The notes: generated by a model not told the origin, from the letters alone. Positions 37,977 to 59,716 are shown, counted from the first letter of the stretch. The stretch: 64,000 nucleotides of DNA from Gemmatimonadota bacterium (GCA_046726475.1 JBKPAO010000009.1:7480-71479), one strand, 5' to 3'. Made by a program: numbers and translations.

Positions 37977-40778
37977 CTAGCCCGTGGCTCCAAATCCCGC
38001 CGCAATGGTATTGATCGACAGCAATAGCGCGGACAGCTGCTCCTCCTGGCTCTTGTCACTGCCCGATTCGCGAAACCGGCGGAGCAGCTCGATCTGTTGG
38101 CGGCTGACCTGATTGATGGTTGGCAGTCGACGGGCCAGTCTCCGGCGGAATCGAGGGTAGCGTTCGACCAGCTCGCCGCCCCCGCTGATGCGGAGCACCG
38201 CCTCGACCGTGCGGTGATACTCCTCCACCACCAGCGCTAAAATCGAGGTTCTGGCAGCAGCATTGGGCACCAGCTCGGCGTACTCGCGCGCAATGCCCAG
38301 ATCGACGTAGCTCAGCGTCTTCTCCACCTCATCCACGATCAGCCTAAACAGCCGGGACTCGGTGAACATCCGGTCGAGCAGGGCCGCGCCCCGTTGGCCG
38401 CGAACCTCCAGGAACGTCAGGATGCCGCTGCCAACGCCGTACCAGCCAGGGACGAAGTGGCGATTCTGAGACCAGGCAAACACCCAGGGAATCGCCCGGA
38501 GGTCGCTGAGCGACCGTGCACCGAAGCGCCGGGCCGGACGGGAGCCGAGGTTCAGCAGCGAGATCTCTTCCAGCGGGCTCGCGGCCTGATAATACGGCAG
38601 CAGGTCGGGGTGATCGATCAACTGCCGATACGACGCCTGCGCAGCACCGGAAAGAGCCTCCATCGCCTCGTCGAATTCGGCGGTCGGCACCAGCGCCTTT
38701 TCCCGTTCCGACTTGAGGGTATGCTCGACCACGCTCGCCGCGAGCAGCTCGAGCTGATACTGCGCCGTTCCCCGATTGGCGTACTTGAACGAAACGACCT
38801 CGCCCTGCTCCGTGATTCGCATGCGACCCTGGATCGAGCCGGCAGGCTGCGCGGCAATCGCACGGCCGGTTGGGGCGCCTCCCCGGCTCACCGAGCCGCC
38901 GCGGCCGTGGAAAAACGCAATGGGCACGCCGGCTTCCTTTCCCACCCTGGTCAGCTTGATCTGCGCCTTGCTGAGCTCCCAGTTTGAAGTAAGAAATCCG
39001 CCGTCCTTGTTGGAGTCAGAGTAGCCGATCATCACCTCCTGCACTCCACCCTGACTCCGGACGCTGCGGCGCACCAGCGGCACCGCCAGAAGCTCGCGCA
39101 TGATCGCCGGCGCGCGCTGGAGATCTTCGATAGTCTCGAACAGGGGAACGATGGGAAGGGTGCAGCTCTCGACCCCGGCAGTGTCAGCAAACAGACCGGC
39201 GTTCTTGGCGAGGAGGTAGGCGCCCAGCACATCGCTCGTGCTCCGAGTCATGCTGAGAATGAAGCTGCCGAACGCCTCGCGATCGATCTCTTCTCTGAGA
39301 CCGCGAACCAACTCGAACATTCCCTGCGTTTCCGCCGAGTCGTCCGGTAACTTCGGTCGGTCTTCCCCAGGAGTGAGCGGGCGCGCCAGCTCGGCCGCAA
39401 GCCACTGCCGCCACTTCTCGGAGGTCTGATCCGGAGCCTCACGCGTGGTCTCGCTGTCCGCCTGCCCGCCCGTCCGCCCGTCCACTTGCCTCCAGAGATC
39501 CGCCAGCGCGGCGTTGAGTTTGGTGGTGTTCTCCCGGAGATCGAGCCGTACGGTGCTGAATCGGAATGCTTCCACTTCCCGGCGCACCGGCCGCACCAGC
39601 ATCGCTCCGATCGAGGTACTTCCTGCCGCGCTCAGCTGCTCCTCGATGAGACGGAGATCGCTGGCCAGGGCATCAGGGGATTGATATCCTGCCGGGCCCA
39701 CCGCGACCTGACCCCGTTCCGCCGAAGCGATCATGGTATCCACCCGGCCGATCATGCAGGCGAGGAACTGGCGAAATACCTCGCCCGGATTCCGCGCCGC
39801 GATCCCCTCGCCGTCGCCACTGGCCTCGAGCTCCCGGGTAAGTGCGGCACGAAACGCCTCCGATACCGGGATCGCTCGCTCGGTGATGCTGAGCGCGCGG
39901 ACCAGCTCCGCCAGGCGCCTGCGATAACGGCGGAGTGCTGACAGACGGTTTTCCAGCAGTGTGCTTCGCGTGACCTCGTTGGTAACGAACGGGTTCCCAT
40001 CGCGGTCGCCGCCAACCCACGAGCCGAACTGCAGGAAGGCAGGAACCTGGAAGCGCTCGCCAGGATAGAAGGAGGCTAGGGCGCGCTCCAACTTGTCGAG
40101 CAGATCGGGGACTGCCTCGAATAGAGTCTCGTTGAAGAAGTGGAGTCCCCAGAATACCTCTTGCGGTACCGTTGGCTTCGCCAGCCGGAGCTCTCCAGTA
40201 TTCCAGAGCAGCTCTATTTCGTTTCGCAATCCATCGATCAGGGACTGCCGCTCGCGCGGAGTCCATCGGGGAGACTCCAGGTCGACCAGACGGCGATAGA
40301 TCCTCCGGTGCTTCTCCAACACCGTCACACGCTTGGCCTCGGTGGGATGGGCGGTGATCACCGGTCGGACCCGCAGGACTTCTAGCAAGGATCGGATCTC
40401 GTCGGCCGGTACCTTCGAGGCAGCCGCACCGGAGATGACGTTCGCGAATGTTCCGCGAAGTTGCTCGTGCCCTCGCTCCGCCTCGATCTGTCGGCGGCGA
40501 CGCATCGCCGCATTCTGTTCGGCGATGCTGAGCAGTTGGAACCAGAGCCCCTGCACCTGAAGAGTGCGGGCCAGCACTTCCGGACTGAGCTCCGACACCG
40601 ATCGCTCACCCCGCAGGACCTCGGCGACCTCAGGCTGTCGATCCCGGACCAGCCCGAGCAGGAGCGACGACAGCAGCTCAACGACTTCATTGGCGTAGGC
40701 GGCCGCGCTGGCGGCGGCCGGGTCGGCGGACTCCGGGAGGGAAACCGGGGAGAAAGGTTCGAGCAGGGTCTGGGTCAC
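37977..40778 (-). CDS. ppc: Phosphoenolpyruvate carboxylase
   Basis: VITAHPTE, GGDRDGNP, MIGYSDSNKDGG, FHGRGGSVSRGG, LRAIPWVF. Confidence 0.98.
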   Translation of the reverse strand: MTQTLLEPFSPVSLPESADPAAASAAAYANEVVELLSSLLLGLVRDRQPEVAEVLRGERSVSELSPEVLARTLQVQGLWFQLLSIAEQNAAMRRRRQIEAERGHEQLRGTFANVISGAAASKVPADEIRSLLEVLRVRPVITAHPTEAKRVTVLEKHRRIYRRLVDLESPRWTPRERQSLIDGLRNEIELLWNTGELRLAKPTVPQEVFWGLHFFNETLFEAVPDLLDKLERALASFYPGERFQVPAFLQFGSWVGGDRDGNPFVTNEVTRSTLLENRLSALRRYRRRLAELVRALSITERAIPVSEAFRAALTRELEASGDGEGIAARNPGEVFRQFLACMIGRVDTMIASAERGQVAVGPAGYQSPDALASDLRLIEEQLSAAGSTSIGAMLVRPVRREVEAFRFSTVRLDLRENTTKLNAALADLWRQVDGRTGGQADSETTREAPDQTSEKWRQWLAAELARPLTPGEDRPKLPDDSAETQGMFELVRGLREEIDREAFGSFILSMTRSTSDVLGAYLLAKNAGLFADTAGVESCTLPIVPLFETIEDLQRAPAIMRELLAVPLVRRSVRSQGGVQEVMIGYSDSNKDGGFLTSNWELSKAQIKLTRVGKEAGVPIAFFHGRGGSVSRGGAPTGRAIAAQPAGSIQGRMRITEQGEVVSFKYANRGTAQYQLELLAASVVEHTLKSEREKALVPTAEFDEAMEALSGAAQASYRQLIDHPDLLPYYQAASPLEEISLLNLGSRPARRFGARSLSDLRAIPWVFAWSQNRHFVPGWYGVGSGILTFLEVRGQRGAALLDRMFTESRLFRLIVDEVEKTLSYVDLGIAREYAELVPNAAARTSILALVVEEYHRTVEAVLRISGGGELVERYPRFRRRLARRLPTINQVSRQQIELLRRFRESGSDKSQEEQLSALLLSINTIAAGFGATG

Positions 40779-41749
40779 ACGACGCGGTCGCGGAGCGGAG
40801 CGCCGCTGAAGAACAGTCGCAGATTCTCGACTGCTCGCCGTCCCATGGCGATGCGGGTCTCGTGAGTCGCGCTTCCGAGATGGGGGAAGAGCACCACGTT
40901 TTCCATGGTGAGCAGCTCCGGGGTGATCTCCGGCTCCCGCTCGTAAACGTCGAGGCCGGCGCCGGCGATCGTGCCGTCCCCAAGCGCTTCCACCAGGGCT
41001 GCCTCATCCACGATGTCGCCGCGTGCGGTGTTGACGAGGAACGCGTTCCGGCGCATTCGAGCCAACCGCTCCCGATTCATCAAGTGCCGGGTCTCCGGGC
41101 TCGCGGGACAGTGGAGGGAAACGAAGTCCGACTCCTCCAGCACCTGCTCCAGCGCATCTCGCGGCTCCGCTCCCAGCGCAGCCGCTTCTCCGGGCGAGGG
41201 GGGATAGGGGTCGTGGAAGATCACCCGCATTCCGAAACCGTGATGCGCGCGTTTCGCGACCGCACGGGCGATCCGCCCCATTCCAACCAGGCCAAGCGTC
41301 TTGCCACTTACCTGAGTGCCCAGCATATGCGTCGGGCGCCACCCAGTCCAGGCACCGCAGCGGACATGGCGCTCGCCTTCGCCGGCTCGGCGACTGACCA
41401 TGAGTAGCAGCGTCATCGCGATGTCGGCCGTGGCCTCGGTGAGAACATCGGGTGTGTTCGATACGGCCACCCCCCGAGCCTTGGCCGCATCGGTGTCGAT
41501 GTGATTGAAGCCGACGCCGAAGTTCGCGAGCAGGCGGGCACGGAGTGGCTCCGCGCTGAGAACCTCGGCGCTGATCCGATCGGTCACGGTGCAGAGCAGC
41601 GCGTCGGCGTCGCGGAGTGCTTCCTGGAGACCGGCGGCTCCGAGCGGACGATCGTCGCGATTGAGTCGGGCGTCGAAATCTCGGCTGAGCTCCTCCTCGA
41701 CGACTCCGGGAAGGCGCCGGGTAACTACCACGGTGGGACGCGCCATCAC
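40775..41749 (-). CDS. hprA: Hydroxypyruvate/glyoxylate reductase (D-glycerate dehydrogenase)
   Basis: NTPDVLT, GMGRIA, VNTARG, DVYEREP, HLGSAT; serine-cycle context. Confidence 0.8.
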
Positions 41750-42660
41750 TTCACGCCGACCTTCTTCCGCGACGAGCGCTTGGAGAGGGCCGCCGCGATC
41801 GTCGAACCGAGCTCGGCCGGGCTGGGAGCCACGGTGAGACCGGCGGAACGCATGATCTCGGCCTTCTCCGCCGCGGTGTCACCAAAGGCGGAAATGATGG
41901 CACCGGCGTGCCCCATCCGCCGTCCCTTCGGGGCGGTGAGCCCCGCGACATATCCGATCACCGGTTTACTCATGTTTTTCTTAACGAACAGCGCGGCTTC
42001 GGCCTCCTGGGGACCGCCGATCTCGCCGATCATCATGACCGCCTCGGTCTCAGGATCCTCCTCGAACAGCTTCAGCATATCCACGAACGAGCTGCCGTTG
42101 ATGGGATCGCCGCCGATCCCGACGCTGGTAGTCTGTCCGATGCCGAGCGCGTTCATCTGAGCCGCGGCCTCGTATCCGAGCGTCCCCGACCGCGTGACCA
42201 ACCCGACGTGCCCCCTGGAATAGATGTGGCCAGGCATGATCCCCAGCATGGCCCGGCCGGCGCTGATGATGCCGGCGCAGTTGGGACCGATTAATGTGGT
42301 CCGCCGCTCCTTGGGAAAGCGGAACAGGTACCGCTTCACCATCATCATATCCTGCGCTGGAATTCCGTCGGTGATGGTGCAGATGAGACGAATTCCGGCG
42401 TTGGCGGCCTCCATGATGGAATCGGCGCAGAACGCCGCTGGGACAAAGATGATGCTGGCAGTGGCCCCCGTTGCCTTCACTGCCTCCCGGACGGTGTTGA
42501 ATACCGGGCGATCCAGGTGCCGGGTTCCTCCTTTGCCAGGGGTCACGCCACCGACGACGTTGGTGCCGTAGGCGATCATCTCCTTGGCGTGGAACGTAGC
42601 TTTGTCCCCGGTGAACCCCTGTACTACGACGCGGGTGGTTTCATCGACGAGAATGCTCAT
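41746..42660 (-). CDS. mtkB: Malate--CoA ligase alpha subunit (SucD-like)
   Basis: [22 protein letters not shown] phospho-His; follows mtkA. Confidence 0.85.
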
Positions 42661-43889
42661 GGCTGTCCATTACCTCCGGCGACGCCAGGCGAAGAACGCT
42701 TTGCGGCGGGTGAACGGGTGGCACGGTAGGTGTTGAGCGCTTTGACAACCCGCTCCGCTGCCTCGGAGAGCGTATCTGCCGTGATGATCGGGAGACCGCT
42801 GTCCTTGAGAATCTTTCTTCCCTCTTGGAAGTTGGTCCCCGCCAGGCGCACCACCAGGGGGATCTCGAGTTGGGTCTCTCGCGCCGCCTGTACCACGCCC
42901 TGAGCGACCCAATCGCAACGGTTGATGCCGGCAAAGATGTTGACCAAAATCGCGCTGATCTTCGGATCGGAGAGCACCAACCGAAAGGCAGCAGCGACTC
43001 GGTCGGGCGAGGCGCCCCCGCCAACGTCGAGGAAGTTTGCCGGATGACCGCCCGCGTGCTTGATCATGTCCATCGTCGCCATCGCCAGACCGGCCCCGTT
43101 GATGATGCAGCCGATGTCTCCCTCGAGGGCGACATAGTTGAGGCCATACTCCGCGGCCTGCGCCTCCCGGGGATCTTCCTCAGCGTAGTCCCGCAGCTCG
43201 CTGACGTTGGGACGACGGAACATCGCGTTGTCATCGAAGGTCATCTTACAGTCGAGGGCTAGTACCTGTCCGTCGCCGGTCACCACCAGCGGATTGATCT
43301 CGACCATGGTCGCGTCGAGATCACGAAAGGCACGATAGGCGCCGAGGAGGGTGGTGACCGCACGACTCACCTGGGCCGGCGCCAGTCCCAGCCCGAAGGC
43401 GATCTCCCGTGCCTGAAAGGCAGACATGCCGATCGCCGGCTCGACCACTTCGCGGAGAATCGACTCGGGCGCGCTCTGAGCGATCTCCTCAATCTCGATT
43501 CCTCCCTGAGGGTGGGCCACAATTATGATCCGCTCGGTCTTGCGGTCCAGCACGAGCCCGACGTAGAGCTCCCGCTCAATTGGAACCGCAGCCTCGATGT
43601 AAAGCCGGTGCACCACCCTTCCCTCCGGACCGGTTTGATGGGTGACCAGCTTTCGGCCGAGCAGGCCCTTCGCCGCCTGGCGAACTTCATCTTCGCTGGA
43701 GCAGAGCTTGATCCCACCGGCTTTGCCGCGAGCTCCGGAGTGGATCTGAGCCTTCACGGCCCAGCGCGCCCCGCCGATCTCCGAGGCGCGGTAAACCGCC
43801 TGCTCGGGACTGTAGGCCACGCCACCGCGCGGGATGGCAACGCCGAAGCCGGCGAGAAGCTCTTTGGCTTGGTATTCGTGGATGTCCAT
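42657..43889 (-). CDS. mtkA: Malate--CoA ligase beta subunit
   Basis: [41 protein letters not shown] are MtkA-type rather than SucC-type (GGRGKAGG, NIFGGI). Confidence 0.88.
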
Positions 43890-43968: not shown

Positions 43969-44946
43969 CTAGTGTACACCCACCTTTGACTCTTGACCCT
44001 TGACTCTCGACATTTTTCCAATCGCCTCATCCATATCCACCACGTTCTGCGCCATCCGCGCCGAGGCGGCATCGATCATGCGCCCATCGAGCTGCGCAGC
44101 GCCACGACCCTCCCGAGCTGCTTGCTCCAGCGCCTCGAGAATCCGCCGAGCCCGCTCGACTTCACGCGCCGGAGGAGTGAACACCTCGTTGGCGAGGGCG
44201 ATTTGTGATGGGTGGATCGCCCATTTCCCTTCGATGCCGAGCGCCGCCCCCCGCCGCGCAGCAGCGGTGTATCCGTCGGGATCTTTAAAGTCGCCGAAGG
44301 GACCGTCGATCGGCCGCAGACCGTAGGCCCGGCACGCAACGACCATGCGGGACAATGCGGCGTGCCACTGATCACCTGGATAATCGGGATTGAGACCGCC
44401 GATGTTCACCGTGCGTGCCCGACAGCTCGCGGCGTAATCCGCCACTCCGAAGTGCATGGCCTCGAGGCGGCGGCTGGATTGGGCAATCGCCTCCACGTTG
44501 GCCATTCCCAGAGCAGTCTCGATCAGTACATCGATTCCGATCCGGTGCGGAATACCACGGGCTTCTTCAATCTGGGTCAGCAGCGCGTCGACTAGGTAGA
44601 CGTCTGCCGGCACTCCAACCTTGGGGATAAGCACCGTGTCGAGGCGATGGCCTGCCTGCTCCACCACGTCCACCACGTCCCGATACATATAATGAGTATC
44701 GATACCGTTGATTCGGACAGAGATGGTCTTACCGCGCTCGCGCCAATCGTGCTCCAGCAAAGCCGCGATGACATTGAGGCGAGCCTGCGGCTTGTCCGCC
44801 GGGGCAACGGCGTCCTCAAGGTCGAGGAAGATATAGTCGGCTTCTCCGTCGAGCGCCTTCCGGAACATGGGAGGCTGCGAGCCGGGCACCGCCAGCTCGC
44901 TCCGCTGCAGACGGGGGTGCGACGGCTCGTAGCGGGTGTGACTCAT
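43969..44946 (-). CDS. mcl: Malyl-CoA lyase (CitE family)
   Basis: RLQRSELAVPGS, YMYRDVVDVVEQAG, MHFGVADYAAS, GKWAIHPSQ. Confidence 0.92.
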   Translation of the reverse strand: MSHTRYEPSHPRLQRSELAVPGSQPPMFRKALDGEADYIFLDLEDAVAPADKPQARLNVIAALLEHDWRERGKTISVRINGIDTHYMYRDVVDVVEQAGHRLDTVLIPKVGVPADVYLVDALLTQIEEARGIPHRIGIDVLIETALGMANVEAIAQSSRRLEAMHFGVADYAASCRARTVNIGGLNPDYPGDQWHAALSRMVVACRAYGLRPIDGPFGDFKDPDGYTAAARRGAALGIEGKWAIHPSQIALANEVFTPPAREVERARRILEALEQAAREGRGAAQLDGRMIDAASARMAQNVVDMDEAIGKMSRVKGQESKVGVH

Positions 44947-46202
44947 CGAGCGGCGCCGGCGGTAGCCTTCCTGGATACCGTCGACTGGGACTGCGTCTCG
45001 GGAGCTCGGGGCGGGAGCTCCCGTTTCGGGAGCGCGGCCGCGGTGCTGCGCCAGTACTCCTGCGCCGCGCCGACGCCGGTTCCCAGCTCTATGTCGATCC
45101 CGACGTCTCGCATGGCCATTTCGGACCCAGCGATGGCACCCAACAGCATCAGCTCGTTGAGGTCTCCCAGGTGACCGATGCGAAAGAGCTTCCCCGCCAT
45201 GCGAGCGAGCCCTGCTCCGAGGGCGAGGTTATAGCGGCGATAGGCCACATCGATGACTTCGGCTCCGTTGTACCCCGCCGGGACCATGATGGCGGTGACG
45301 GTGTCGGAGTTCCACTTGGGGGCGCGAGCGCAGAGCTCCAGTCCCCACTCCTTCACCGCCCGGCGGGTTCCTTCGGCCAGTCGGTGGTGCCGGGCGAACA
45401 CGTTCTCCAGGCCCTCTTCGAGCAGCATGTCGATCGATTCCCTGAGACCATATAGCATGGGAAGCGACGGCGTGTAGGGGAAGTAGCCGGTCGCATTCGC
45501 CTTCCGCATGTCGCCGAAATCGAAGAAGACCCGCGGCAGCTTGGCTTGATCGTAGAGCGCGAGCGCCTTTTGGCTGGCGCAGACGATGCCGAGACCGGCG
45601 GGCAACATGAAGCCCTTCTGAGAGCCGGTGACTGCGAGATCGACTCCCCATTCGTCCATCCGGAAATCGATGCTCGCAATCGAGCTGACGCCGTCTACCA
45701 TCAGCAGCGCGGGATGCTTGGTATCATTGAGCGCTCGCCGAATCCCGGCGACATCGCTGGTGACCCCGGTGGCAGTTTCATTATGAGTGAAGAGCACTGC
45801 CTTGATCCGCTGTCCTTTGTCCCCTGCGAGCGCCTCCTGGTAGCGCTCGATGGGCGCACCCTCGCCCCACTCTACATCGATAATTTCCACTTGAAGCCCA
45901 AACCGCTGCGCCATGTCGATCCAGAGATGACTGAACATCCCGAAACGCGCGGCAAGCACCCGATCTCCCGGTGACAGCGTGTTCGAGAGGGATGCTTCCC
46001 ACGCGCCCGTCCCGCTGGCCGGGAAGATGAACGCCTGACCCGATGTGGTCTTGAAGATTTTCTTGAGATCCTCGAGCACGGGCGCGGCGAGCGCCGGGAA
46101 GTCGGAGGAACGATGATCTTCCATCGCGCGGTGCATGGCACGGAGAACCCGATCGGGCACGTTGGTAGGCCCGGGAACGAAGAGGAAATTGCGGCCTGCC
46201 AT
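44943..46202 (-). CDS. sga: Serine--glyoxylate aminotransferase
   Basis: GRNFLFVPGPTNVP, HNETATG, GSQKG PLP lysine, GYFPYTP, FRIGHLG. Confidence 0.92.
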   Translation of the reverse strand: MAGRNFLFVPGPTNVPDRVLRAMHRAMEDHRSSDFPALAAPVLEDLKKIFKTTSGQAFIFPASGTGAWEASLSNTLSPGDRVLAARFGMFSHLWIDMAQRFGLQVEIIDVEWGEGAPIERYQEALAGDKGQRIKAVLFTHNETATGVTSDVAGIRRALNDTKHPALLMVDGVSSIASIDFRMDEWGVDLAVTGSQKGFMLPAGLGIVCASQKALALYDQAKLPRVFFDFGDMRKANATGYFPYTPSLPMLYGLRESIDMLLEEGLENVFARHHRLAEGTRRAVKEWGLELCARAPKWNSDTVTAIMVPAGYNGAEVIDVAYRRYNLALGAGLARMAGKLFRIGHLGDLNELMLLGAIAGSEMAMRDVGIDIELGTGVGAAQEYWRSTAAALPKRELPPRAPETQSQSTVSRKATAGAAR

Positions 46203-46328
46203 GGGAACCTCTCGATGCGGGGTAGGACGGTACGAGTAGGATGAGCCAGGAGTCTAGAGCCCACGATTCGAGTCTAGGGGAGGGGCCCACCTGAGACTCT
46301 TACCTGCTGCGACCATACGAATAACACT

Positions 46329-46346
46329 TTGTGAACTTTTTCACAA
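46329..46346. promoter_or_regulatory. Perfect palindrome matching the Rex operator (also CRP-like)
   Basis: TTGTGAA-CTTT-TTCACAA in the divergent sga/glycerate kinase intergenic region. Confidence 0.75.
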
Positions 46347-46355
46347 GAGATTCTT

Positions 46356-47678
46356 TTGACTAACGTCCATCCGGCGGACGCTCAATCGCTACTGGCCGAT
46401 CTCTACTCTGCGGCCACAACCGCAGTTGCGCCAGGACCCGGCCTCAGAGCGCGGCTCCAGAGCCTGGGCCCCGACAATGCAGCCAACTCGATCTGGGTCA
46501 TCGCACTAGGCAAGGCAGCCGTCCCAATGGCCGACGCTGCAGTGGAGCATCTCCGAGCCTCAGGACGTCGTCTCGCGGGTGGCCTTGTCATTGGCCCCGC
46601 GGTGAAGGGATCAGAAGGCTCGCCACTCCCCTATCGACAGGGAGATCACCCCGAACCGGGGCCGGCATCGTTTGCAGCGGCGGAAGCTCTTGCCCGAGTA
46701 GTAGCCCAAATTTCTCCGGAGGCCGAGGTGTGGGTACTCCTGTCAGGGGGTACGACCAGCTTGGTAGGGGCACCGGAGTCCGGGCTGACGACGGAGGAGC
46801 TCTCCGGGATCTACGCGCTTCTCCTCGGCTCTGGTCTGGAGATCACCGCCATGAACCGAATTCGGAAGCGATTCTCCCGATGGGGAGGAGGTAAGCTCGC
46901 CCGGGCGTTGGCTCCCGCCAGGGTTAGGGTCTACATCGTATCAGACGTGATCGGGGATGACCTGGCCTCGATCGGCTCGGGCCCCTGCGTACCTGATCCA
47001 ACCACTGCCGCCGAGGTGCGTCACCTCTTGGAGAGCTCGGGGCTGTGGTCGCGGATCCCGGCATCGGCTCGCACGATCATCCACTCAGCCGAGACGGGAT
47101 CGAGCCCCGAAACGCCTAAGCCAGGAGATGAGGCGTTCGTGAACGTCAGTTCGGAGGTGATTGCGAGCAATCACCTGGCACTCGAGGCCGTCCGCAACAG
47201 AGCAGCCGAGCTGGGTATGGCCCCGTTGCTGATCGAGGTGCCCATCGTAGGCGAAGCAGCGGCAGTTGGGACTCGGATCGCTTCCGAGCTGCTGGGGAAC
47301 TGCAATCGCTCAGCCGGGCAACCGGCGGCACGCTGCTTCATCTGGGGTGGTGAGACCACGGTGACATTGGGTGATGGATCGGCTGGGCTGGGTGGCCGGT
47401 GTCAGGAGCTGGCTCTCGCGGCAGCACGGGTTTTTAACCAGGCCGGTGAGTCGCTCGCGTTGCTGGCCGCCGGCACGGATGGACGAGACGGACCTACCGA
47501 CGCCGCAGGAGCAATCGTAGACGCGGGCACATGGAGCGCCATCGCACGGGGAGGACGGGATCCCGCCAGCGACCTAGCCTACCATAACGCGTACTACGCA
47601 CTTGATGCGGCCGGTGCGCTGCTGCGGCCAGGACTCACCGGGACCAACGTCATGGATGTGGTGATAGGGATCTGTTAG
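46356..47678 (+). CDS. gck: Glycerate 2-kinase (MOFRL/TtuD family)
   Basis: GKAAVPMA, LLSGG, SDVIGD, IGSGP, GGETTV, GTDGRDG, TGTNVMD. Confidence 0.92.
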   Translation: MTNVHPADAQSLLADLYSAATTAVAPGPGLRARLQSLGPDNAANSIWVIALGKAAVPMADAAVEHLRASGRRLAGGLVIGPAVKGSEGSPLPYRQGDHPEPGPASFAAAEALARVVAQISPEAEVWVLLSGGTTSLVGAPESGLTTEELSGIYALLLGSGLEITAMNRIRKRFSRWGGGKLARALAPARVRVYIVSDVIGDDLASIGSGPCVPDPTTAAEVRHLLESSGLWSRIPASARTIIHSAETGSSPETPKPGDEAFVNVSSEVIASNHLALEAVRNRAAELGMAPLLIEVPIVGEAAAVGTRIASELLGNCNRSAGQPAARCFIWGGETTVTLGDGSAGLGGRCQELALAAARVFNQAGESLALLAAGTDGRDGPTDAAGAIVDAGTWSAIARGGRDPASDLAYHNAYYALDAAGALLRPGLTGTNVMDVVIGIC

Positions 47679-48133: not shown

Positions 48134-48666
48134 CCAGATTCGATTGTGTGAATGAGTCGGGACCGGGCGACTTCGCGCAAGACGAGTGTCGGCTCCCGAG
48201 GTAGGCGCTCGGCGAGCTCTGCTCTCCGCTCGCGATCGAAGGATCGCCCGGGCTCCAGGAAGTCGGCACAATAGAGGATACGTCCCACCATATCCCACTC
48301 AGCTAGACCGACCGAGTGATACCGCACTGCATCCAGCACCCCACGATCATCCTCGCCCTCGGCCCGGGCGCGGGCGGAGCTCGCCGGCCCATGACGAAGC
48401 TCGGGAGGTCCTGGCGTATTGGCGGACCACTTCTCCAGCACAGCGTCCGGCGCATCTCGCAGCGCGTCGTGGAGCCAGATCGCACGGAGCCAGCGGTTGC
48501 GCTCCGAATCGGGCACGCCCATCTGTTCGGCCCAGTGCACAGCGAGAGCCGCCACCCGTTGAACGTGCTCTAGCCTTTCCGGAGAGATGACTGCCCACTC
48601 GGGAAGGGTGGGCCGAAGCTCGGGTGAGCTAGGACGGGGTGGCCGCGCCGAGCCAGACTTGGTCAG
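48064..48666 (-). CDS. YqeK-like HD hydrolase (Ap4A hydrolase family)
   Basis: [26 protein letters not shown]; frame is open upstream to a CTG overlapping the panD stop. Confidence 0.85.
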
Positions 48667-49034
48667 CTCTCGGCCCGGAGCTGTGGTCGAACGATGCGGT
48701 TCTTGGAATCGACGAACACGACTGCGGGTGAGTGCCGCCCCGCTTCGTCTTCGGTGTAGACCCCATAGGAGATCACGATCACGAGATCACCCGGTAAACC
48801 CTGGCGCGCCGCAGCCCCGTTGAGTTGCAACACACCCGAGCCACGAGGGCCGGGAATGACATAAGTCGAGAAGCGAGCACCGTTGTTGACATTGACCACC
48901 TGGACCTCCTCATAGGTGGCAAGATCAGCGGCGTCGAGTAGTTCCTGGTCGATGGTGAGCGAGCCCTCATAGTGCAGGTCGGCCGAGGTAATCGTCGCCC
49001 GGTGAATCTTTGACTTCATCAGGTGGCGCTGCAT
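48663..49034 (-). CDS. panD: Aspartate 1-decarboxylase
   Basis: [22 protein letters not shown]. Confidence 0.97.
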
Positions 49035-49888
49035 CAGCCGAGTCCTTGTGCGAGAGTGATGTTGTCAATCAGGCGGGTGCCGCCGACGCGGGCCGCGATC
49101 GCCACGATGGTGCGGCCCTCCACCAGGGCGACCGGTGTCAGGCCGCTCGGCTCGACGATGGCGATGTACTCGACCGTGACCCGAGAACTGCTACGAAGCT
49201 CGTCTTGCATGCGCTGTTCTAACGCGCTAGCCCGGCGCTCACCTTCGCAGAACCCCTGGTGCGCAACGGCCAACGACCGACTGAGAAGCACCGCTGCCTT
49301 GCGGTCTCCTTCCTGGAGGTAGGTATTCCGGCTGCTGATTGCCAGACCATCCGGCTCGCGCACGGTCGGGACATCCACGATCTCGATTGGCCAGTCCAGA
49401 TCACGCACCATGCGCCTGATGAGGGTGAGTTGCTGGATGTCCTTGCGTCCGAAGCACGCCAGGTCGGGCTCGACCAAGTGGAACAGCTTCGCGACCACGG
49501 TCAGAACGCCGGCGAAGTGTCCTGGCCTAGCCGCACCCTCCCAGCGCTCGGCTGTCGGTCCCGGCACCACTCGAATTTCCGAGCCGGGCGGATACATCGT
49601 TTCCACCTCGGGGACAAACAGCGCATCGACCCCGCGGCCTGCCGCTAGCGAGCGATCCCGGGGTAAGTCCCGCGGGTAGCGTGCCAGATCCTCGCCCGGC
49701 CCAAACTGAAGCGGATTGACAAAGATGCTCATGATTACCGCTTCGGCTCGGCGCCGGGCTTCGTCGACCAGCGCGAGATGCCCTTCATGGAGATATCCCA
49801 TCGTGGGCACCAGTCCGACCCTTCGGTCGGCGGCGTGCTGCGACCTGGTCCAGGCGCGGAGCTCGGCCCTCGAGGTGATCTCATTCAA
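49034..49888 (-). CDS. panC: Pantoate--beta-alanine ligase
   Basis: [26 protein letters not shown]; TTG start overlapping the panB end. Confidence 0.96.
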
Positions 49889-50693
49889 AGCTGTGTTCCT
49901 TGGAGGGGTATTTCCCCTCCCGTACGTCGGATGCGTACGCTCGCACTGCTTCCCGCACCGTCTGGCCCAGCTGCCCGTAGTGCTTGAGGAACTTGGGCGT
50001 GAACTGCTCGTTGAGGCCGAGCATGTCGTGGAGGACCAACACCTGTCCGTCGCACTGGGGGCCAGCACCGATGCCGATGGTGGGAATGGTCAGCGACTGC
50101 GAGATCCGCCCGGCGAGGGCAGCGGGGATGAGCTCGAGGACAATGGCACACGCTCCGGCCGTCTCTAACAGCTTCGCATCGTGCAGTAGCCGGTCGGCGG
50201 CGGTCGGTTCCCTGCCTTGCACCCGATAGCCACCCAGGGCATGAACCGATTGTGGTGTGAGCCCCAAATGGCCGATGACCGGGATGCCCCGCTCTACCAG
50301 CGCGGCCACCGTTTCCGCCATGTGACCCCCACCCTCCAGCTTGACTCCGTGCGCGCCGGTTTCCTGGAGCACCCGACCGGCGTTTCTGATCGCCTCGGGG
50401 ATCGAGACCTGATAGGTGAGAAATGGAAGATCCACGAAGACGAGCGAGCGACGGGAGCTGCGCCGCACCGCGGCCGCATGGTAGATCATCTGATCCAGCG
50501 TCGTACTGAGTGTGGTCTCGTGTCCGGCAATGACCTGATTCAGTGAGTCACCCACCAACAGGATGTCGACGCCCGCCTCCTCCAGCAGGCGGGCAAACAC
50601 GGCGTCGTAGCATGTCAGCATCACCACTCGCCGCCCCGCACCCTTCATGGCGAGCAGATCACTCACCGTCAGTGGCCGTGGATCAGAGCTCAT
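49881..50693 (-). CDS. panB: 3-methyl-2-oxobutanoate hydroxymethyltransferase
   Basis: LVGDSL, VKLEGG, HLGLTPQS, GIGAG. Confidence 0.97.
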   Translation of the reverse strand: MSSDPRPLTVSDLLAMKGAGRRVVMLTCYDAVFARLLEEAGVDILLVGDSLNQVIAGHETTLSTTLDQMIYHAAAVRRSSRRSLVFVDLPFLTYQVSIPEAIRNAGRVLQETGAHGVKLEGGGHMAETVAALVERGIPVIGHLGLTPQSVHALGGYRVQGREPTAADRLLHDAKLLETAGACAIVLELIPAALAGRISQSLTIPTIGIGAGPQCDGQVLVLHDMLGLNEQFTPKFLKHYGQLGQTVREAVRAYASDVREGKYPSKEHSFE

Positions 50694-51126
50694 GGGATTC
50701 GATTTCCGCCAGCTCTCGGAGCCAGAAGTCGCGGTTGGACAGCTCAGGATGAGGAATGATAAGGTCTTCCTCGGTCACGTGCCGGTCACCAAAGCGCACG
50801 ATATCGAGATCTAATGTGCGGGGACCCCAACGTTGGGTGCGGCGGCGGCCGTGCTCGTTCTCGATGGATTGTAAGGCCGCCAGCATCGCCCGGGGCGTCA
50901 GGGACGTTTCCAGCAGCACCATCTGATTGAGGTAGGGGGGCTGATCCATTCCCCCCAACGGCGCCGTTTCTTCAACTGCGGAACTGGCGATCAGAGCGGT
51001 GCTCGGGAGTGACCCGAGGGCTTCCCGGGCAGCTCGCAGGTGGCCAGCTCGGTCGCCCAGGTTGCTGCCCAATGCCACGAAGACCCGCTCCCGGCCGGGT
51101 ACCCCGCGCTCAGGCCTCAACGGCAA
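50683..51126 (-). CDS. folK: HPPK (folate pathway)
   Basis: [22 protein letters not shown]. Confidence 0.95.
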
Positions 51127-53191
51127 AGTGACTCGCGATGCGCTGGAGGTCAGAGGCCAGGCCGCCGAGCTCCCGAATCGCGCGCTCTAGCTCGGCTTGT
51201 CCCGCCGATGCCTCTCCCGCTCGCTTGGCCAAGGTATCGGTGTCTGCCCGGCTCTTGGCCGAGCTGGCGGCGACTTGTTCGATCTGACCGGTCAGGGAAT
51301 TGACCGCATCTCGCTGCAGGGCGGCGGTCGCGGCAATCGCCTTGGCGTGTCCGCCCGCTTCACCGGTAGTCCCGACGATGGCGTCCAGAGCTTTAGCGGC
51401 ATCCGCGCTGAGCTCCTCGACACCGGCAACTACGTCGCGCCCCTTCGCCATCTGTCCGGAGACCGCGGTGACTTGATTGGCAATTTCGCCGAGGAGGCCT
51501 CCGGCTTCTTGGGCGGCGTGAAGACTCTGCGCTGCCAGTTCGCGCACTTCGGACGCAACGACTGCGAACCCGCGCCCTTCCCGGCCGGCGCGAGCGGCCT
51601 CGATCGCGGCATTGAGTGCAATGAGGTTGGTGAGGTCGGCGATCTCGCGAATCGTTCCGATAAAGCCCGTGATCCGCTGAGTGAGCCCCCCGAGTGCGGC
51701 GACCCGATCGGCACCGGCAGCAACGAAGCCTTTGAGCTCGACCAGCCGGGCGATTGCGTCGCCGATCACGTCACGGTTACGGGCAGCGACCTCGGCTGCG
51801 GTACCGCTGGCAGTGGCTGCCTGCGCTCCCTGGCTCATCATCTCCTGGGTGGCATTCGCAAGTGATCCGGTCGCGCGCAAGCCGCCGGTCGCGAACTTTT
51901 CTAGCTCCATGGCCCCCTGACGCATGCCGAGCGACACATCCGCCAGCGCCGTGGCGGAGGTGCGCAGTGAATCTGCTACCCGGGCGAGAGCCGTCACCTG
52001 CTCCCCGATCTGGCCGACGGTAAGCACCAAGGGCCGTCGAAGCTCCGCGATATGTATGGCGGTCGCCATCTGGCCGGCCAAAGTACTGAGGGCAAGCAAG
52101 TCCTTGGAACGGTAGGCGTGGCGCTTGTGGTGCTCAACCTCCAGCAGTCCCAGAATGTCGTCGCCGAAGCGAATGGGATGAATCACCAGGGTGAGCACGC
52201 CCTCCATCACGCCGGCGATCCGGGCGTCGTGGCGGGTATCCGGGACCACCAGCGGCTCACGGTTCTCCAGCACCTCACGACGCAGTGCTACCAGCGCGGC
52301 GGGGGGCTCACCTCGGCTGGGGCGCCCGATTGCGCTACGATACGCGAGCGTCGCCTCGGAGCCGGAGACTTGATACACCCGGAAATCACTCCAGTCGAGT
52401 AGGCGGTACGCCAGTCGCTCAATCTGGGTAAATGATCCCTGGAGCGTCGCGTTGCTCGCGATTGCGCCCTCCATCAGATGGACCTTGTTGAGGTCCTCCG
52501 CTCCGATCGCTTCATCGAGGATTTGTCGGGTGAGCAGTCCCAGCACTCCGAGCGCCAGCGCGACCGCCACCCACCCGACCGGAGCGAGCGTAGCGAGCGC
52601 GGTGACGATGATGGTGGAGGCGATCAGGGTGAGGAGGTAGGAGCTGATCTCCCACCGTAAGATCAGAATTTTCTCGGCGCTCTCCAGCTTGCTGCGGATC
52701 AGGAGGCTGAAGTAGAACAGCGCGCGACTGAGAAAGAAGTAGAGCGAGACGAGGATCGCAGCTGCCGGGAGGAAGTCCAGGGTCAGCTCGGAGCTTACGC
52801 CCAGGGAAAGAATAGCGGCATAGGGACCGTAGGCTGCGACGAACCCGATCACCTCCCGACCGGCATTGATGATCCCGGCCCGAGGTTGTTTGCGGAGCCC
52901 GAACACGTCTGCCGCAGCCACTCCGGCCCAAAGAGCCGCAGCCACAGGGGACGGTCCGATACAGACCGCCCCAACCAGGGTAGGAACCGCCGACTGGGTC
53001 AGATAGGAATACTTGCTGAGGCGAACCGGAACGGCCCGGAGCACGAAGATGCTGAGCATGAGCAGGACCGTGGAGATCGGATGCGACAGCCAGCGGGTGT
53101 CCACCGCAAGCACTCCGGCAAGGAGTACGAGTCCTCCTACCGAAAGTACCTGGGAGTAGCCGTGGATCAGCGGTTGAACCTTGATCTTCAT
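51110..53191 (-). CDS. Methyl-accepting chemotaxis-like protein with multi-TM N-terminus and GAF domain
   Basis: [33 protein letters not shown]; GAF-like region; 6-7 TMs. Confidence 0.9.
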
Positions 53192-53979
53192 GGGCGGCTC
53201 TCCGCATCAATGCCGCGCCGAAGAGAGGCCAAGAACCTGCCCGCCGCCCGGACTCCCTGACTTCCGAGGACATCGACCAGCGCACTTCCTACGACGACAC
53301 CGTCGGCCATACCGGCTACTACCCGGGCCTGTTCCGGCGTGGAAATCCCGAAGCCCACCGCAACCGGGAGCGAAGTCACCTGCCGGACTGCCGCTACCGA
53401 ATCACCGAGGCCAGACGACAACATTGCGGTGGCACCGGTGACTCCAAGTCGCGCCACCAGGTAGACGAATCCCCGCGCGCCTTCTACGGTTCGCGCCAGC
53501 CGGTCTCCTCGCGTGGTTGGGGCAATCAAGCGGATGAGGTCGAGCTCGCTGCGCTGGACCGCTGATTCAACATCGGGGTCACTGCCGGCGGGAAGATCGG
53601 TGAGAATCAGACCCGCAACACCGAGGGAAGTGGCATCCGCGAGAAAGCGCTCGATGCCATATCGCAAGATGGGGTTGAGATAACTGAATATCACCACCGG
53701 CCGGCTCAACTCAGCGCGAGCCACCAGCTCGAGCGTGCCGGGAAGGGTCATTCCCTGACGAAGCGCCTCAAAAGTAGACCGCTGAATCGTAGGCCCGTCG
53801 GCGAGTGGGTCGCTGAACGGCACGCCCACTTCGAGAATATCGGAGACCTCGGCAGCAAGCCGAAGCGCCTCCACGCTGGCATCCGCGCTGGGGTAGCCCG
53901 CGGTGAGATACGGAATGAGCGCGCGGCGACCGCTGGAACGCAGGGTGGACCAGGTCTGCGCCAACGGCGACTCAGACAA
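53188..53979 (-). CDS. trpA: Tryptophan synthase alpha
   Basis: [33 protein letters not shown]; start TTG 53979 (ATG 54003 possible). Confidence 0.97.
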
Positions 53980-55426
53980 AGTAATCGCCAACCGTGATTC
54001 CATAGCGAGAGGGGTTGGTGACCTTGACGATGGAGCGGCGGTAGGCGCCGCTGTCGTCCTTCTCACTCAAACTCACTTGAGTGCCGGGTGCCGGCACGGG
54101 CCCCCCGTCGGCATCGACCGCGATGCGCACCAGAGGACGTTTGAGATGCTCGCCTTCCGGATTCGGCGCAGCAACCACGCCGACTTCGAAGGTGTCCAGG
54201 ATGACGCAGGTGCCCACGGGGTAGACGCCGATCAGATTGATGAGAGCCTTCACCAGCACCCGGTCGTAGCCTCGGTTCGGGTTCTCCCACATCTCTCGGA
54301 GCACCTGATCGGGCTCGATGGGAACGGTCTGATATACCCGCCGGGTCGTCGCTGCGTCGAAGCCGTCGGCCACCGACACGATCCGGGAAAAAATGCCCAG
54401 CTTCCGTGGCCTCACCACCTTGGGGTACCCGGTGAGATCGGTCTTCATGTGATGCTCATGTGCAACCAGGACCGAGCGGTAGGGTATCTCCTCGTATCCT
54501 CGCATGCTGAAGAGGGTGAGCGCGCCAAGCCAGGGGTGGGACTGGATGATCTTCCACTCGTGCTCGTCCAGCTTGCCGGCTTTGTTCAGCACCTCAGTGG
54601 GCACCCGCGCTTTCCCCACATCGTGCAACAACGCCGCCATGCCGAGGTCACAGAGCTGGACCTTGGAGAAGCCCAGCTTTTTGCCCAAGGCGACGGAGAA
54701 GATGCAGACATTCACCGAGTGGGTGAACGTGTATTCGTCGTAATCACGAATGGTGGTCAGACCTACCATCGAGATCTCATTGTTGAGCACTTGATCGACC
54801 ACCATCTGGACCGCGCGCTTCACCCGCTTGAGTCCGGTCGCCCGGCCCAGACGAACCCCGCCGATGACATCCTTGGTCACCGCCACACTCTGGGCATACA
54901 CCTGCTTGGAGGCTTCCCGCGCCTCGGCGGAGCTTCCCCCATCCGGTAAGCCACGCTCCAACTCCAGATGCACGATGTTGGCGGCGCCCAGGCGTTCCAG
55001 GAGCTCCTTGTGCCGTTCGTCAGCGTTGTCCCTGGCGGAGAGACTGAGCAGCAAACTCAAGAAGATCTGCCAGTCCCGGCGCTCGGTCCCACCCCTGACC
55101 CGGAGCGCACCGATCTCGAAGCCTCGAAAGATTGCGAGCACGTGACTGAACGAGGCGTAGTTGTCGAGCTCCAGCCGGAGCCGGGTAGAGTTGACGAAGA
55201 TGAAGTCGCCCGCGAGTCGGATCTCCAACTCGATCTCGGTTTGGAGTAGCGAGCGGGTGGTAGCATCGAGATCGGCCAGCGCCTTTTGAACGGTGGCGTT
55301 CTCCAGCGGATAGAGCTTGAGACTTCTGAGGGCAGTGTATAGCGCGAGCAGCAAGGAGCGGCCGCCCTGGCGAAGTTGTCCGTCATCCCCCGGCGCGTCG
55401 GAGACGAGTTCCAAGGGATTGCTCAT
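53972..55426 (-). CDS. HD-GYP domain protein
   Basis: DEYTFTHSVNV, LHDVGK, HEHH...TGYP, VADGFDA. Confidence 0.9.
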   Translation of the reverse strand: MSNPLELVSDAPGDDGQLRQGGRSLLLALYTALRSLKLYPLENATVQKALADLDATTRSLLQTEIELEIRLAGDFIFVNSTRLRLELDNYASFSHVLAIFRGFEIGALRVRGGTERRDWQIFLSLLLSLSARDNADERHKELLERLGAANIVHLELERGLPDGGSSAEAREASKQVYAQSVAVTKDVIGGVRLGRATGLKRVKRAVQMVVDQVLNNEISMVGLTTIRDYDEYTFTHSVNVCIFSVALGKKLGFSKVQLCDLGMAALLHDVGKARVPTEVLNKAGKLDEHEWKIIQSHPWLGALTLFSMRGYEEIPYRSVLVAHEHHMKTDLTGYPKVVRPRKLGIFSRIVSVADGFDAATTRRVYQTVPIEPDQVLREMWENPNRGYDRVLVKALINLIGVYPVGTCVILDTFEVGVVAAPNPEGEHLKRPLVRIAVDADGGPVPAPGTQVSLSEKDDSGAYRRSIVKVTNPSRYGITVGDYFV

Positions 55427-57108
55427 TTGGCGGCCTCGCGCAGGGCACGGCTGACGGCATTGCGGACCACCAGATCCTTGTCTTCTGCCGCGCGTTGAAG
55501 GACGTCGCGAGCGTCCGGTGTCTTGAGGCGACCGAGCGCCACGGCCGCGCAAGCACGGATCTCCGGAGGTTGCTTCATCCGGAGCAGACCGCGATCGAGG
55601 AGAATGGAGCTGAGCGGCTTCAGCGCACTCACTCCTGCAATGGCGCTATATGCCTCGAAGAATGCCATCTTCTCCGTCAGGTCCATCTCCTTCACTGATT
55701 TCCCCAGCACAACGCTCTCCACCCGCCGAAGCGCGCCTTTATAGCCGCGAGCTCCTGCGGACCGCACCGCAGCGAGTCGGACTCCGCGGTCGGTATCCTC
55801 AATTGCCTTGTCGACGACCGTCAGCGCTCCCGGGGTACCCAGCTGGCCCAACGTTTGGACGATGGCTAACCGTACGGCGGGGTCGGGATGACCCATCGCC
55901 TCGGCCAGGGCGGGAACGGCCTGGTGAAGTCCCAGCCGGCCACACAAGCCGATCATGCCCGAGAGGGCGGATGAATCCTGAATACCGAGGATGCGTTGTA
56001 CCTCGGTGGGATAAGTATGTGCCAGACGATCAACGAGATCCTCCAGCATCTTCCGAAGCGGGCTCGACGTGAGATTGGGAAGCCAGCTCACGCAGGGCTC
56101 CAGTGCAGATGCTCGCAATTCCCGCAGCACCTCTGCCGCGTGCTCCTCGACCCCGAGGTTGCTCGCCTCATCCAACGATTGCAGCAGTTGCCCAACGATC
56201 GTCGGCTCACTGAGCTTGGCGCCGAAAGCGTCCAGCCGTTGGACATGTTCGGGCTTCAGATCGGGGATTCGCTCTTTCAGGAGCTTGCACTCCCGGAGCA
56301 CGGCTGCGGAGCTCCGAAAGTCGCGCGCGTTCAGGAGATTGGGGAAGAGGCGCTCGAGGATGCGAAGAACTTCGTGCCTCACCGCCGGCTGGACATTCAC
56401 CTCGAACAGATCGAACAGCACATTCAGTGCGCTCGCCCGCACGTCTCGCGAATACTCCTCATCTACCTCGCGAGCGAGATAGCTGATTTCGGAGTCGTCC
56501 AGGAAGTAAAGGGTGGACTCGACATCGTCGAGATCGATCAGACTCTTCTGCTGCTGTTGAGGAGCCTCCTGGGCAATCTGCGCCTTGCGGTCGGCCGCGG
56601 TTTGTCCGTCAAGTGCTTGCCCGCTGACCTGAGGAACCGAGCCGGCTCCGTCGCCGGTAAAAAAGTCGATGAACCGGAATTCGATGAACTCGAACTCATG
56701 CTCCCACAACAGAGTTGGGAGATCATCACCGGCGTCCGCGGGCAGAAACCGCGCTTGGTTGACGATTGTGAGCAGGCGAGGCAGATCTATTTCTTCGGCG
56801 CCACGCCGGATGGTCAGAGCGCGCATCCCGTCCTTGAACAGGCTCCAGCTTAGGCTCTCCGACTTACTTGCTTGGCGATAGACGACCTGCTCCTCCCAGA
56901 TGAACTCCGTTTCGGTCACCTTCAGCACCACCTCTTCGGTGGACGCCCAGATAGGCGGGCAGGCGGCCTGGACGTTCTTTATGGCGCGCTGATAAACCGG
57001 ATTGTTCGGCAGGTACATCTGAAAGGCCCGCAGGGCCTTCACCATCACCGCGAGCAACTCGGCAACTTGCGAGGCGGGAACAAGGGGCGTCTGCGGCTGT
57101 GCGGTCAC
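55423..57108 (-). CDS. HEAT-repeat protein
   Basis: [28 protein letters not shown] repeats; GTGA overlap with the trpB stop. Confidence 0.85.
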
Positions 57109-58307
57109 AACCGGATACCAAGACTGGCCGCGACGTGGGCCACATCCTTGTCCCCCCGCCCGCTGAGACAGATGAGCACTACGGCATCGGGCGGAAAGGT
57201 GCCCGCGGCCCGACGGACCCACGCCAACGCGTGGGCACTCTCGAGCGCCGGGATGATTCCCTCCAACCTGCAGAGCGTCTGGAAAGCATCCAGCGCTTCG
57301 GCATCGGTCGCGGTCTCGTAGCTGACCCGCCCCACATCCCGCAGGTAACTATGCTCCGGCCCGACACCGGGATAGTCGAGGCCGGCCGATATCGAGTGAG
57401 CCGGTGCCACCTGGCCGTCGGCGTCCTGCAAGAGGTAGCTCAGACTCCCGTGAAGCACACCCGGCGTCCCCGCGCTCAGGGTGGCGCTGTGATGCCCGGT
57501 GGAGAGGCCCTCCCCCGCTGCCTCGACTCCCACGAGGCGGACTCCTGGATCATCGAGGAAGCCGCTGAATATGCCCATGGCATTGGAGCCTCCACCCACG
57601 CAAGCCACGACGGTATGAGGGAGCCGGGCGAAGCGCTCCAGCATCTGCGCTCGAGACTCGCGGCCGATCACGGACTGGAAGTCACGCACCATACGGGGGA
57701 ACGGGTCGGGGCCGACCACGGACCCAATGATGTAGTGAGTGGTCGGTACATTGGTGACCCAATCGCGGAGCGCCTCATTGGTCGCGTCCTTCAGCGTCCG
57801 GGTACCTGATTCGACCGGCACCACGGTGGCGCCGAGCAGCTGCATGCGGTAGACGTTCAGCCGCTGCCGCTCCATATCCTCGGCGCCCATGTAGACCACA
57901 CATTCCATGTTGAATCGCGCGCATACTGTCGCCGTCGCCACTCCGTGCTGGCCGGCGCCGGTCTCGGCGATAATCCTCCGCTTTCCCATGCGCTGGGCCA
58001 ATAACGCCTGGCCGATCGTGTTGTTGATCTTGTGCGCGCCGGTGTGATTCAGGTCCTCCCGCTTGAGGACCACAAGGGCCTGGACGGCATCGCTGAGGCG
58101 GGGAGCCTCGGTCAGCGGGGAGGGCCTCCCAACAAACTCCGTCAACAGACGCTCCAGCTCCGCCCAGAACGAGGCGTCTTCGCGCGCGGCATCGTACAGC
58201 GCGGTCAACTCGTCGAGCGCCGCAACCAGTGTCTCGGGAACGTACCGGCCGCCATACGGTCCGAAGCGACCTGGTAGGGCGCGCTCAGGTGATTGGGCTG
58301 TGGGCAA
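57105..58307 (-). CDS. trpB: Tryptophan synthase beta
   Basis: [34 protein letters not shown]; start approximate. Confidence 0.98.
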
Positions 58308-59710: not shown

Positions 59711-59716
59711 CTTGTC

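Follow-up and report, generated by a model that had tools for sequence, protein, structure and literature searches.

We begin by considering a palindrome that lies between two divergent sets of genes in the MAG of a soil Gemmatimonadales bacterium from an uncultured genus (3.14 Mb, 172 contigs, 94% complete), and we ask [quoted passage not shown] The DNA analyzed, a 64,000-nt stretch of contig C9 (hereafter the window), carries at positions 46329-46346 the sequence TTGTGAACTTTTTCACAA, that is TTGTGAA-CTTT-TTCACAA, a perfect 7+7 inverted repeat with a 4-nt spacer. Five of its 18 bases are G or C (28%), against 63.5% GC for the genome. The box ends 9 nt before the TTG start codon of gck (46356) and is 126 nt from the start of sga on the minus strand (46202). 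An earlier note on this DNA had described a perfect AT-rich palindrome, 9 nt from a glycerate kinase gene and about 125 nt from sga, in a serine-cycle cluster; the position, the repeat, the base composition, both distances and, by the NCBIfam models, the gene names are borne out.

The genes around the box form the full serine-cycle set in a single cluster (sga, hpr, gck, mcl, mtkA, mtkB and ppc, assigned with NCBIfam). The operon sga-mcl-mtkA-mtkB-hpr-ppc is on the minus strand, and the glycerate 2-kinase gene diverges from it on the plus strand. The features of the locus, in window coordinates, are as follows.

46356 to 47678, plus strand: gck, glycerate 2-kinase, 440 aa, TTG start (glycerate 2-kinase models, E 2e-50)
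46329 to 46346, no strand assigned: predicted Rex operator, ROP (consensus match, uniqueness, footprint)
46322 to 46347, no strand assigned: invariant 26-nt block, consisting of TAACACT, the box and G (comparison of relatives)
44943 to 46202, minus strand: sga, class V aminotransferase of the serine--glyoxylate type, 419 aa (NCBIfam)
43969 to 44946, minus strand: mcl, malyl-CoA lyase family (CitE-like), 325 aa (NCBIfam)
42657 to 43889, minus strand: mtkA, malate--CoA ligase beta subunit, 410 aa (NF010647, 698 bits against a cut-off of 604)
41746 to 42660, minus strand: mtkB, malate/succinate--CoA ligase alpha subunit, 304 aa (NCBIfam)
40775 to 41749, minus strand: hpr, NAD(P)H-dependent glyoxylate/hydroxypyruvate reductase family, 324 aa (NCBIfam)
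37977 to 40778, minus strand: ppc, phosphoenolpyruvate carboxylase, 933 aa, last gene of the operon (NCBIfam)

Neighboring operon genes overlap by 4 nt at four of the five junctions (sga/mcl, mtkA/mtkB, mtkB/hpr and hpr/ppc). The NCBIfam model nearest to Sga is that of BhcA, a related aspartate-glyoxylate enzyme, at 634.6 bits, just below the cut-off of 650. The TTG start of gck falls in an NTG column that can be aligned in eight relatives. This column holds TTG in the host and in several relatives, and an in-frame CTG in five others (L009, L033, L034, L039 and L047), where it stands at the same distance from the conserved N-terminus of the kinase; the true start codon of gck may be non-canonical or lie elsewhere. 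The flanking genes include a radical SAM gene, aspS, phoH, panBCD, folK, a gene for a LytR_C-domain protein, an MCP gene and trp genes. The surroundings at 48663-51126 and 53188-61425 have a housekeeping character, with panD, panC, panB and folK, a GAF-domain chemoreceptor, and trpA, a trpB-like gene, trpF, trpC and trpD. Among the ORFs annotated over about 27-64 kb of the window, no gene for a LysR/QscR-like or other regulator is adjacent to the cluster. The nearest relatives of Sga in named records are from soil MAGs titled Gemmatimonadales or Gemmatimonadaceae, and the protein is 69-74% identical to the products of genes in Methyloceanibacter, Methylocella and Methylibium MAGs.

The box matches the generalized Rex consensus, TTGTGAA-N4-TTCACAA, with 0 mismatches; this is the motif as it is given in PMC5317091, PMC6391272 and PMC5355995. 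A scan of the window for TTGTGAANNNNTTCACAA with up to two mismatches finds the box as the sole match in 64 kb, and in 100 dinucleotide-preserving shuffles of the window the same scan finds no match in any. From its sequence and setting, we consider it highly probable that the palindrome is the operator of the NADH/NAD+-sensing repressor Rex, placed in the control region that gck shares with sga-ppc.

The next question is "does the genome encode a Rex that could bind such a site?" There is one rex gene (contig C41, 18150-18770, minus strand), with a full-length product of 206 aa that scores 247 bits with the NCBIfam model NF003995 (cut-off 126) and 69.4 bits with PF06971. The protein has a winged-helix DNA-binding domain and a Rossmann NAD(H) domain, and its sequence contains GAGKIG. 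Residues 3-204, end to end, align with the Thermus Rex of a DNA complex (3IKT) at E 5.6e-48, and the stretch QVRKDLSFFGSFGKRGLGY of the recognition helix and wing is close to QVRKDLSYFGSYGTRGVGY of T-Rex.

Over the whole genome, the numbers of sites at increasing distance from the Rex consensus are bimodal: two sites have 0 mismatches, five have one, none has two and 24 have three. The gap at two mismatches implies a small true regulon that stands above the background. The seven sites on the near side of this gap include the box itself and the following.

8 nt before the ATG of rex: at most one mismatch
Before atpA-atpG-atpD: one mismatch, at one of the two atp loci (C108:4996 and C123:61287)
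Upstream of the gene for the F0 a subunit: one mismatch, likewise at one of these two atp loci
30 nt before a gene of the isocitrate lyase (ICL) family: a perfect site, 0 mismatches
At a cupredoxin (plastocyanin-family) gene: at most one mismatch
Before a polyprenyl-phosphate sugar transferase gene: at most one mismatch

The two perfect sites in the 3.14 Mb both precede glyoxylate-linked genes. The ATP synthase genes are divided between two loci, each with its own one-mismatch Rex box, and characteristic spacers recur at these boxes across the genus. The earlier note had proposed to look for rex and for the motif in front of rex and of respiratory genes; the gene is found, as described above, and the motif stands 8 nt before it and at both ATP synthase operons. 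In Streptomyces avermitilis, experiments have established both rex and the atp operon as targets of Rex (PMC5355995). Taken together, these sites would give a small, clean Rex regulon for the Gemmatimonadota, comprising rex, the two atp operons, the ICL-family gene and the cupredoxin gene.

If Rex is the protein that binds these sites, motif and gene should be seen together in other genomes. In the genus, 41 of 41 genomes have 4-7 sites each; with a reversed pattern as the control, 39 of them have none and two have one. Of 81 genomes from the phylum, 66 have a rex match. The 15 that do not have 0-2 sites each (nine with none, five with one and one with two, seven sites in total). Each of the class's 58 rex-positive genomes has one site or more; its four rex-negative genomes have 2, 0, 0 and 0. 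The rex-positive genomes in which no site occurs, five in number, come from a single distant family, whose Rex is divergent and scores much lower. In 15 genomes with listed sites, a box lies within 40 nt of the coding start of rex. The motif thus tracks rex across the 81 genomes, in counts that are descriptive and drawn from related, not independent, genomes. Two unpublished genomes, G003 (loci L017 and L133) and G104, enter the counts as single rows, and the conclusions do not depend on them. One genome of the same class (G111) stands out with 30 sites within one mismatch, where the other 80 genomes have 0-7; it may have a much larger regulon or a repeat that bears the motif. With rex in the genome, the motif in front of rex and atp, and the motif following rex from genome to genome, the Rex reading that the earlier note had put forward is supported.

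We turn now to the history of the box. Of 24 other genomes of the genus, 21 have an Sga ortholog, as do 2 of 16 from other families of the order; three truncated loci in which the upstream region is absent (L028, L031 and L032) were dropped from the counts. All 20 same-genus loci with the upstream region share the right half-site TTCACAA, and their left half takes three forms: TTGTGAA in 7 (perfect), TTGTGCT in 9 (two mismatches) and TTGCACC in 4 (four mismatches). Conservation upstream of orthologous sga, which the earlier note had named as a check, therefore holds in part: perfect and two-mismatch boxes occur in the genus at these frequencies, but the four-mismatch form is also found there and the box is absent in distant Gemmatimonadales. 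A second set of 80 loci from named genomes, which overlaps the genus set and shares three identical Sga proteins with it, contains 11 perfect, 11 two-mismatch and 5 four-mismatch sites and 52 loci with nothing better than five mismatches; the one remaining locus is unrelated, and its four-mismatch site is a chance match. In 51 of the 80, gck and sga are arranged divergently. Since 24 of these 51, including the more distant Gemmatimonadales, have no box, the gene arrangement is older than the box.

A quick, midpoint-rooted tree of Sga (98 rows, 95 distinct), in which the Proteobacteria and the other Gemmatimonadales fall outside the genus clade, allows the three forms to be ordered. At the base of the genus clade, one branch after another carries the identical two-mismatch form. 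The perfect form is confined to a subclade of 19 rows, 18 of them perfect and one two-mismatch, and the sister subclade of 9 rows has the four-mismatch form. The simplest reading of this distribution is that the two-mismatch site is ancestral, that one lineage perfected it (CTT to AAC at positions 6-8) and that the sister lineage destroyed it; the perfect box would then be a derived state of one subclade of the genus. S. avermitilis Rex binds two-mismatch operators, at atpI and nuoA1 (PMC5355995), and the ancestral form may thus have functioned already, as a weaker operator. The perfect operator would accordingly represent a recent refinement, within one genus, of an older two-mismatch version that perhaps bound Rex weakly. 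The sister-subclade genomes with the four-mismatch form retain Rex boxes elsewhere, which indicates that Rex control of this particular cluster is dispensable. The locus, whose orthologous site went from a near-perfect ancestral state to a perfect one in one subclade and was destroyed in the sister subclade, offers a dated example of regulon growth.

Within the perfect-box subclade, the 26-nt block is invariant in all 17 distinct sequences and is the only invariant stretch in 138 nt, the flanks being unalignable. Judged by this comparison, the block is under strong purifying selection. Its invariance extends to the spacer CTTT and to the 7-nt left flank, which points to constraints beyond the binding of Rex, for example a promoter or another protein.

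Two further elements are seen in the intergenic regions of relatives. Between sga and gck, relatives have a second AT-rich palindrome that the host genome does not have. Within the genus (L014, L018, L024 and others), where it lies about 20 nt to the left of the box, it reads (C)GAATAnnTATTC(G). In box-less Gemmatimonadales (L053, L057, L058, L063 and L103) the reading is (G)TATATTGTAC(A) or TGTATGTTCATACA. A second regulator of the cluster may use this palindrome as its operator. In a distant Gemmatimonadota MAG whose Sga is 70% identical (L106), TTGTGAAAAAAGGTGCGA lies about 78 nt upstream of sga. It shares 17 of 18 bases with the genus's four-mismatch variant but points the other way with respect to sga.

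Which genes would Rex control from this position? Read on the sga strand, the block has the arrangement TTGTGA-N17-TA, extended in relatives to TTGTGA-N17-TATACA; by eye, these are weak -35-like and -10-like elements. A strict scan of 46100-46500 for sigma-70-type promoters and for terminators returns no promoter-like or terminator-like site. It is conceivable that the box controls gck only and that the sga operon has its own, Rex-independent promoter. The 9 nt between box and gck mirror the 8 nt at rex, and the distance from box to sga ranges over 54-197 nt among the 11 perfect-box loci, with no conservation of the DNA in between. On the other hand, the conserved TTGTGA-N17-TA arrangement faces sga, the perfect-box subclade shows no further conserved element between box and sga, and variable 5' leaders are common. 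We regard control of gck alone as unlikely.

A different protein might also be considered. The core TGTGA-N6-TCACA is contained in the box, as the earlier note had remarked in proposing a fit to CRP, and the genome encodes two proteins of the CRP/FNR family. The better of these (on contig C60; 225 aa, E 4e-34 to the CRP model but below its cut-off) has both Pfam domains, a cNMP-binding domain and a Crp-type HTH, and a helix RETVSRTMRNL. The RE..R pattern of this helix is, we presume, as in E. coli CRP and would suit a TGTGA core. Such a regulator, answering a cyclic nucleotide or another small ligand, could be the one that binds the site, and the nine perfect TGTGA-N6-TCACA cores in the genome, against 0 for the reversed control, suggest that some regulator of this kind is active. 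These nine cores, however, fall into two classes, five with AT-rich and four with GC-rich spacers. The AT-rich class consists of the box and the sites at rex, atpA, the ICL-family gene and the sugar transferase gene, and four of its five members, the box at 46329-46346 included, read TGTGAA...TTCACA. The GC-rich class reads TGTGA(C/T/G)...(C/G)TCACA, and the box does not group with it. Moreover, the extended motif follows the presence of rex over the 81 genomes, and one genome without a rex match (G110) has 0 sites yet carries two CRP-like homologs (63% and 57% identity), a weak point as it concerns a single genome. Of the proposed CRP fit, then, the core and a CRP-like protein stand, but the site belongs with the Rex class, and we judge CRP to be a very improbable reader of the box. 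Occupancy of the box by both Rex and CRP is possible. The four sites with GC-rich spacers (C170:38042, C2:528, C92:12085 and C99:386) are probably sites of the CRP-like protein on C60.

Alternatively, the block could be mainly the core promoter of sga, made of the -35-like TTGTGA, a T-rich spacer and the TA of a -10 element, with the palindrome as a by-product and little or no control by Rex. All 20 same-genus loci retain the right half (TTGTGA when read on the strand of sga), irrespective of the form of the left half, relatives complete the pattern with TATACA, and the invariance of the spacer and left flank exceeds what Rex binding needs. A promoter has no need of the left half, though, and the exact Rex half-site is invariant there in 17 of 17 sequences of the perfect-box subclade. 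A perfect 18-nt match by chance is very unlikely, with two such matches in 3.14 Mb and both before glyoxylate-linked genes, and the strict promoter scan has no match. The two readings are also compatible, as characterized Rex operators overlap -35 boxes (PMC5355995). That the block is a promoter with little or no role for Rex strikes us as most improbable. We reject a terminator or hairpin reading of the palindrome, since it lies between divergent gene starts with 7-nt AT-rich arms that are not called as a terminator, and a riboswitch or leader RNA reading, since an Rfam scan of 45900-46700 with E up to 1 finds no RNA family.

Returning to Rex, we can outline how the operator would work. The box abuts the start codon of gck and probably overlaps the promoter of sga, such that a bound repressor would block transcription toward gck, toward sga or both ways; the S. 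avermitilis Rex operators at atpI and nuoA1 lie over the -35 region (PMC5355995). By analogy with Rex elsewhere, when there is little NADH relative to NAD+ the Rex dimer would sit on the box and keep RNA polymerase from gck, sga or both, and with rising NADH it would leave the DNA and allow the serine-cycle enzymes to be made. The same NADH signal would release rex itself, both ATP synthase operons and the ICL-family gene. This mechanism is drawn from characterized Rex proteins (PMC5355995; PMC5317091, which quotes Ravcheev 2012). The pathway uses NADH (at hydroxypyruvate reductase) and ATP, and C1/C2 assimilation through glyoxylate would thus proceed only with surplus reducing power. The set of functions that would be derepressed (ATP synthase, Rex, the lyase and a route that consumes NADH and ATP) fits the general rule that Rex releases NADH-consuming functions. 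The serine-cycle pathway is probably switched on under surplus reducing power. The further idea of the earlier note, that the cluster may act as a CO2-fixing electron sink, goes beyond the evidence; the operon does include PEP carboxylase.

Sequencing runs with matches to the locus comprise 18 DNA runs (soil, rhizosphere and groundwater) and two labelled as RNA with small shares. One 230-nt contig from an RNA library lies inside sga (45239-45468) and none covers the intergenic region; such contigs cannot show transcription starts or expression.

The second perfect site of the genome directs attention to the metabolism of glyoxylate. The ICL-family protein (378 aa; C112:40292-41428, also L002:4293-5429, minus strand) has isocitrate lyases as its best solved relatives, at about E 1e-35, with RTCGH where those have KKCGH; from the sequence, it is uncertain whether its substrate is isocitrate. 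Of 30 genus loci retrieved, 29 include upstream sequence, and in all 29 a box with 0-1 mismatch (17 perfect and 12 one-mismatch) precedes this gene, which makes the gene a core member of the regulon. No malate synthase is found in the 94%-complete genome, and glyoxylate from such a lyase would then plausibly be consumed by Sga or malyl-CoA lyase.

The genome also holds genes of C1 metabolism. Two PQQ dehydrogenases of the methanol/ethanol family score above the cut-off, and they carry D-Y-D and D-H-D at a putative XoxF-diagnostic position, which we take to mark lanthanide-dependent XoxF enzymes. The C1 genes mch (methenyl-H4MPT cyclohydrolase), folD and glyA are present, and no formate--H4F ligase is found in the 94%-complete genome. 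These C1 genes, with the lack of a malate synthase, would fit a glyoxylate-centered route of C1/C2 assimilation, and a methylotrophic role of the cluster is plausible on this gene content. Gemmatimonadetes are among the methanol-dehydrogenase-bearing MAGs and soil proteomes of PMC11264602, in which the methanol dehydrogenase of this phylum is reported to be very abundant in soil proteomes.

Combining these pieces, we arrive at a tentative model, to which we give somewhat less than an even chance in all its parts. The whole serine cycle and an isocitrate-lyase-type source of glyoxylate would form a single NADH-gated Rex module in one soil lineage of the Gemmatimonadales; a surplus of reducing power would be what permits the assimilation of methanol-derived C1 units, which would serve as a redox valve as well; and the operator would have been perfected inside one genus, by a three-base change, from a near-palindrome that overlapped a promoter. 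If true, the model gives the serine cycle one more mode of regulation next to QscR and SecR, in a field with few regulators in print (PMC13199381), and through a cluster gated by Rex the NADH/NAD+ ratio would bear directly on C1/C2 assimilation.

How does this locus compare with known systems? Rex control of a whole serine-cycle cluster is not found in the titles and abstract openings of the open-access papers searched; the supplementary regulon tables of PMC6391272 and PMC5355995 may add targets among aminotransferases and glycerate kinases. The same titles and abstract openings hold nothing on Rex in methylotrophs or in the Gemmatimonadota. The earlier note had known of no Rex-controlled serine cycle, and for the whole cycle this stands, but a module of an aminotransferase with a hydroxyacid dehydrogenase under Rex is already in print (PMC6391272).

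The closest regulons in composition are those of Streptomyces (S. avermitilis and S. coelicolor, with rex-hem, atpIBEFHAGDC, cydABCD and nuoA-N), in which Rex is autoregulated, the operators overlap the -35 region and NADH releases Rex from the DNA (PMC5355995). The present regulon shares with them the 18-nt consensus and the presence of rex itself and ATP synthase operons among the targets. It differs in its Gemmatimonadota host, in targets that include the serine-cycle cluster and the ICL-family gene, and in being known from sequence alone, and no box with 0-1 mismatch precedes cyd or nuo among the seven annotated sites of the host.

The closest target is found in anaerobic fermenters. In Caldicellulosiruptor bescii, Rex gives an EMSA shift at Athe_2126, an operon of a class V aminotransferase and an NADH-dependent phosphoglycerate dehydrogenase (PMC6391272), and for five Thermotogales the predicted Rex regulon contains a serine-pyruvate aminotransferase (Ravcheev et al. 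2012, as cited in PMC6391272); the module is interpreted there as an NADH-dependent step of serine utilization (PMC6391272). Here, too, a class V aminotransferase of the serine/alanine--glyoxylate type and an NADH-dependent 2-hydroxyacid dehydrogenase lie under a predicted Rex box. Unlike these modules of two or three genes, however, the present cluster adds malyl-CoA lyase, malate thiokinase, PEP carboxylase and a divergent glycerate kinase, and it resides in a host with genes of the methanol dehydrogenase family and for H4MPT.

The serine-cycle regulators named in the available portions of a 2026 paper are QscR, SecR and a candidate ScyR, with Rex unmentioned in those portions, and QscR is described as the only one identified before SecR (PMC13199381). 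The target pathway is the same in these systems and here, namely sga, hpr, mtkAB, ppc and mcl (PMC13199381). QscR acts as an activator, with formyl-H4F as its signal, and SecR is an atypical response regulator (PMC13199381), whereas Rex would be a repressor that reads NADH/NAD+, and the cluster considered here has no adjacent regulator gene. Its gene order, gck divergent from sga-mcl-mtkA-mtkB-hpr-ppc, also differs from cluster types IV and V (PMC13199381). Seen against all three groups of systems, the element would be an ordinary Rex operator, and it is the target and the phylum that are new.
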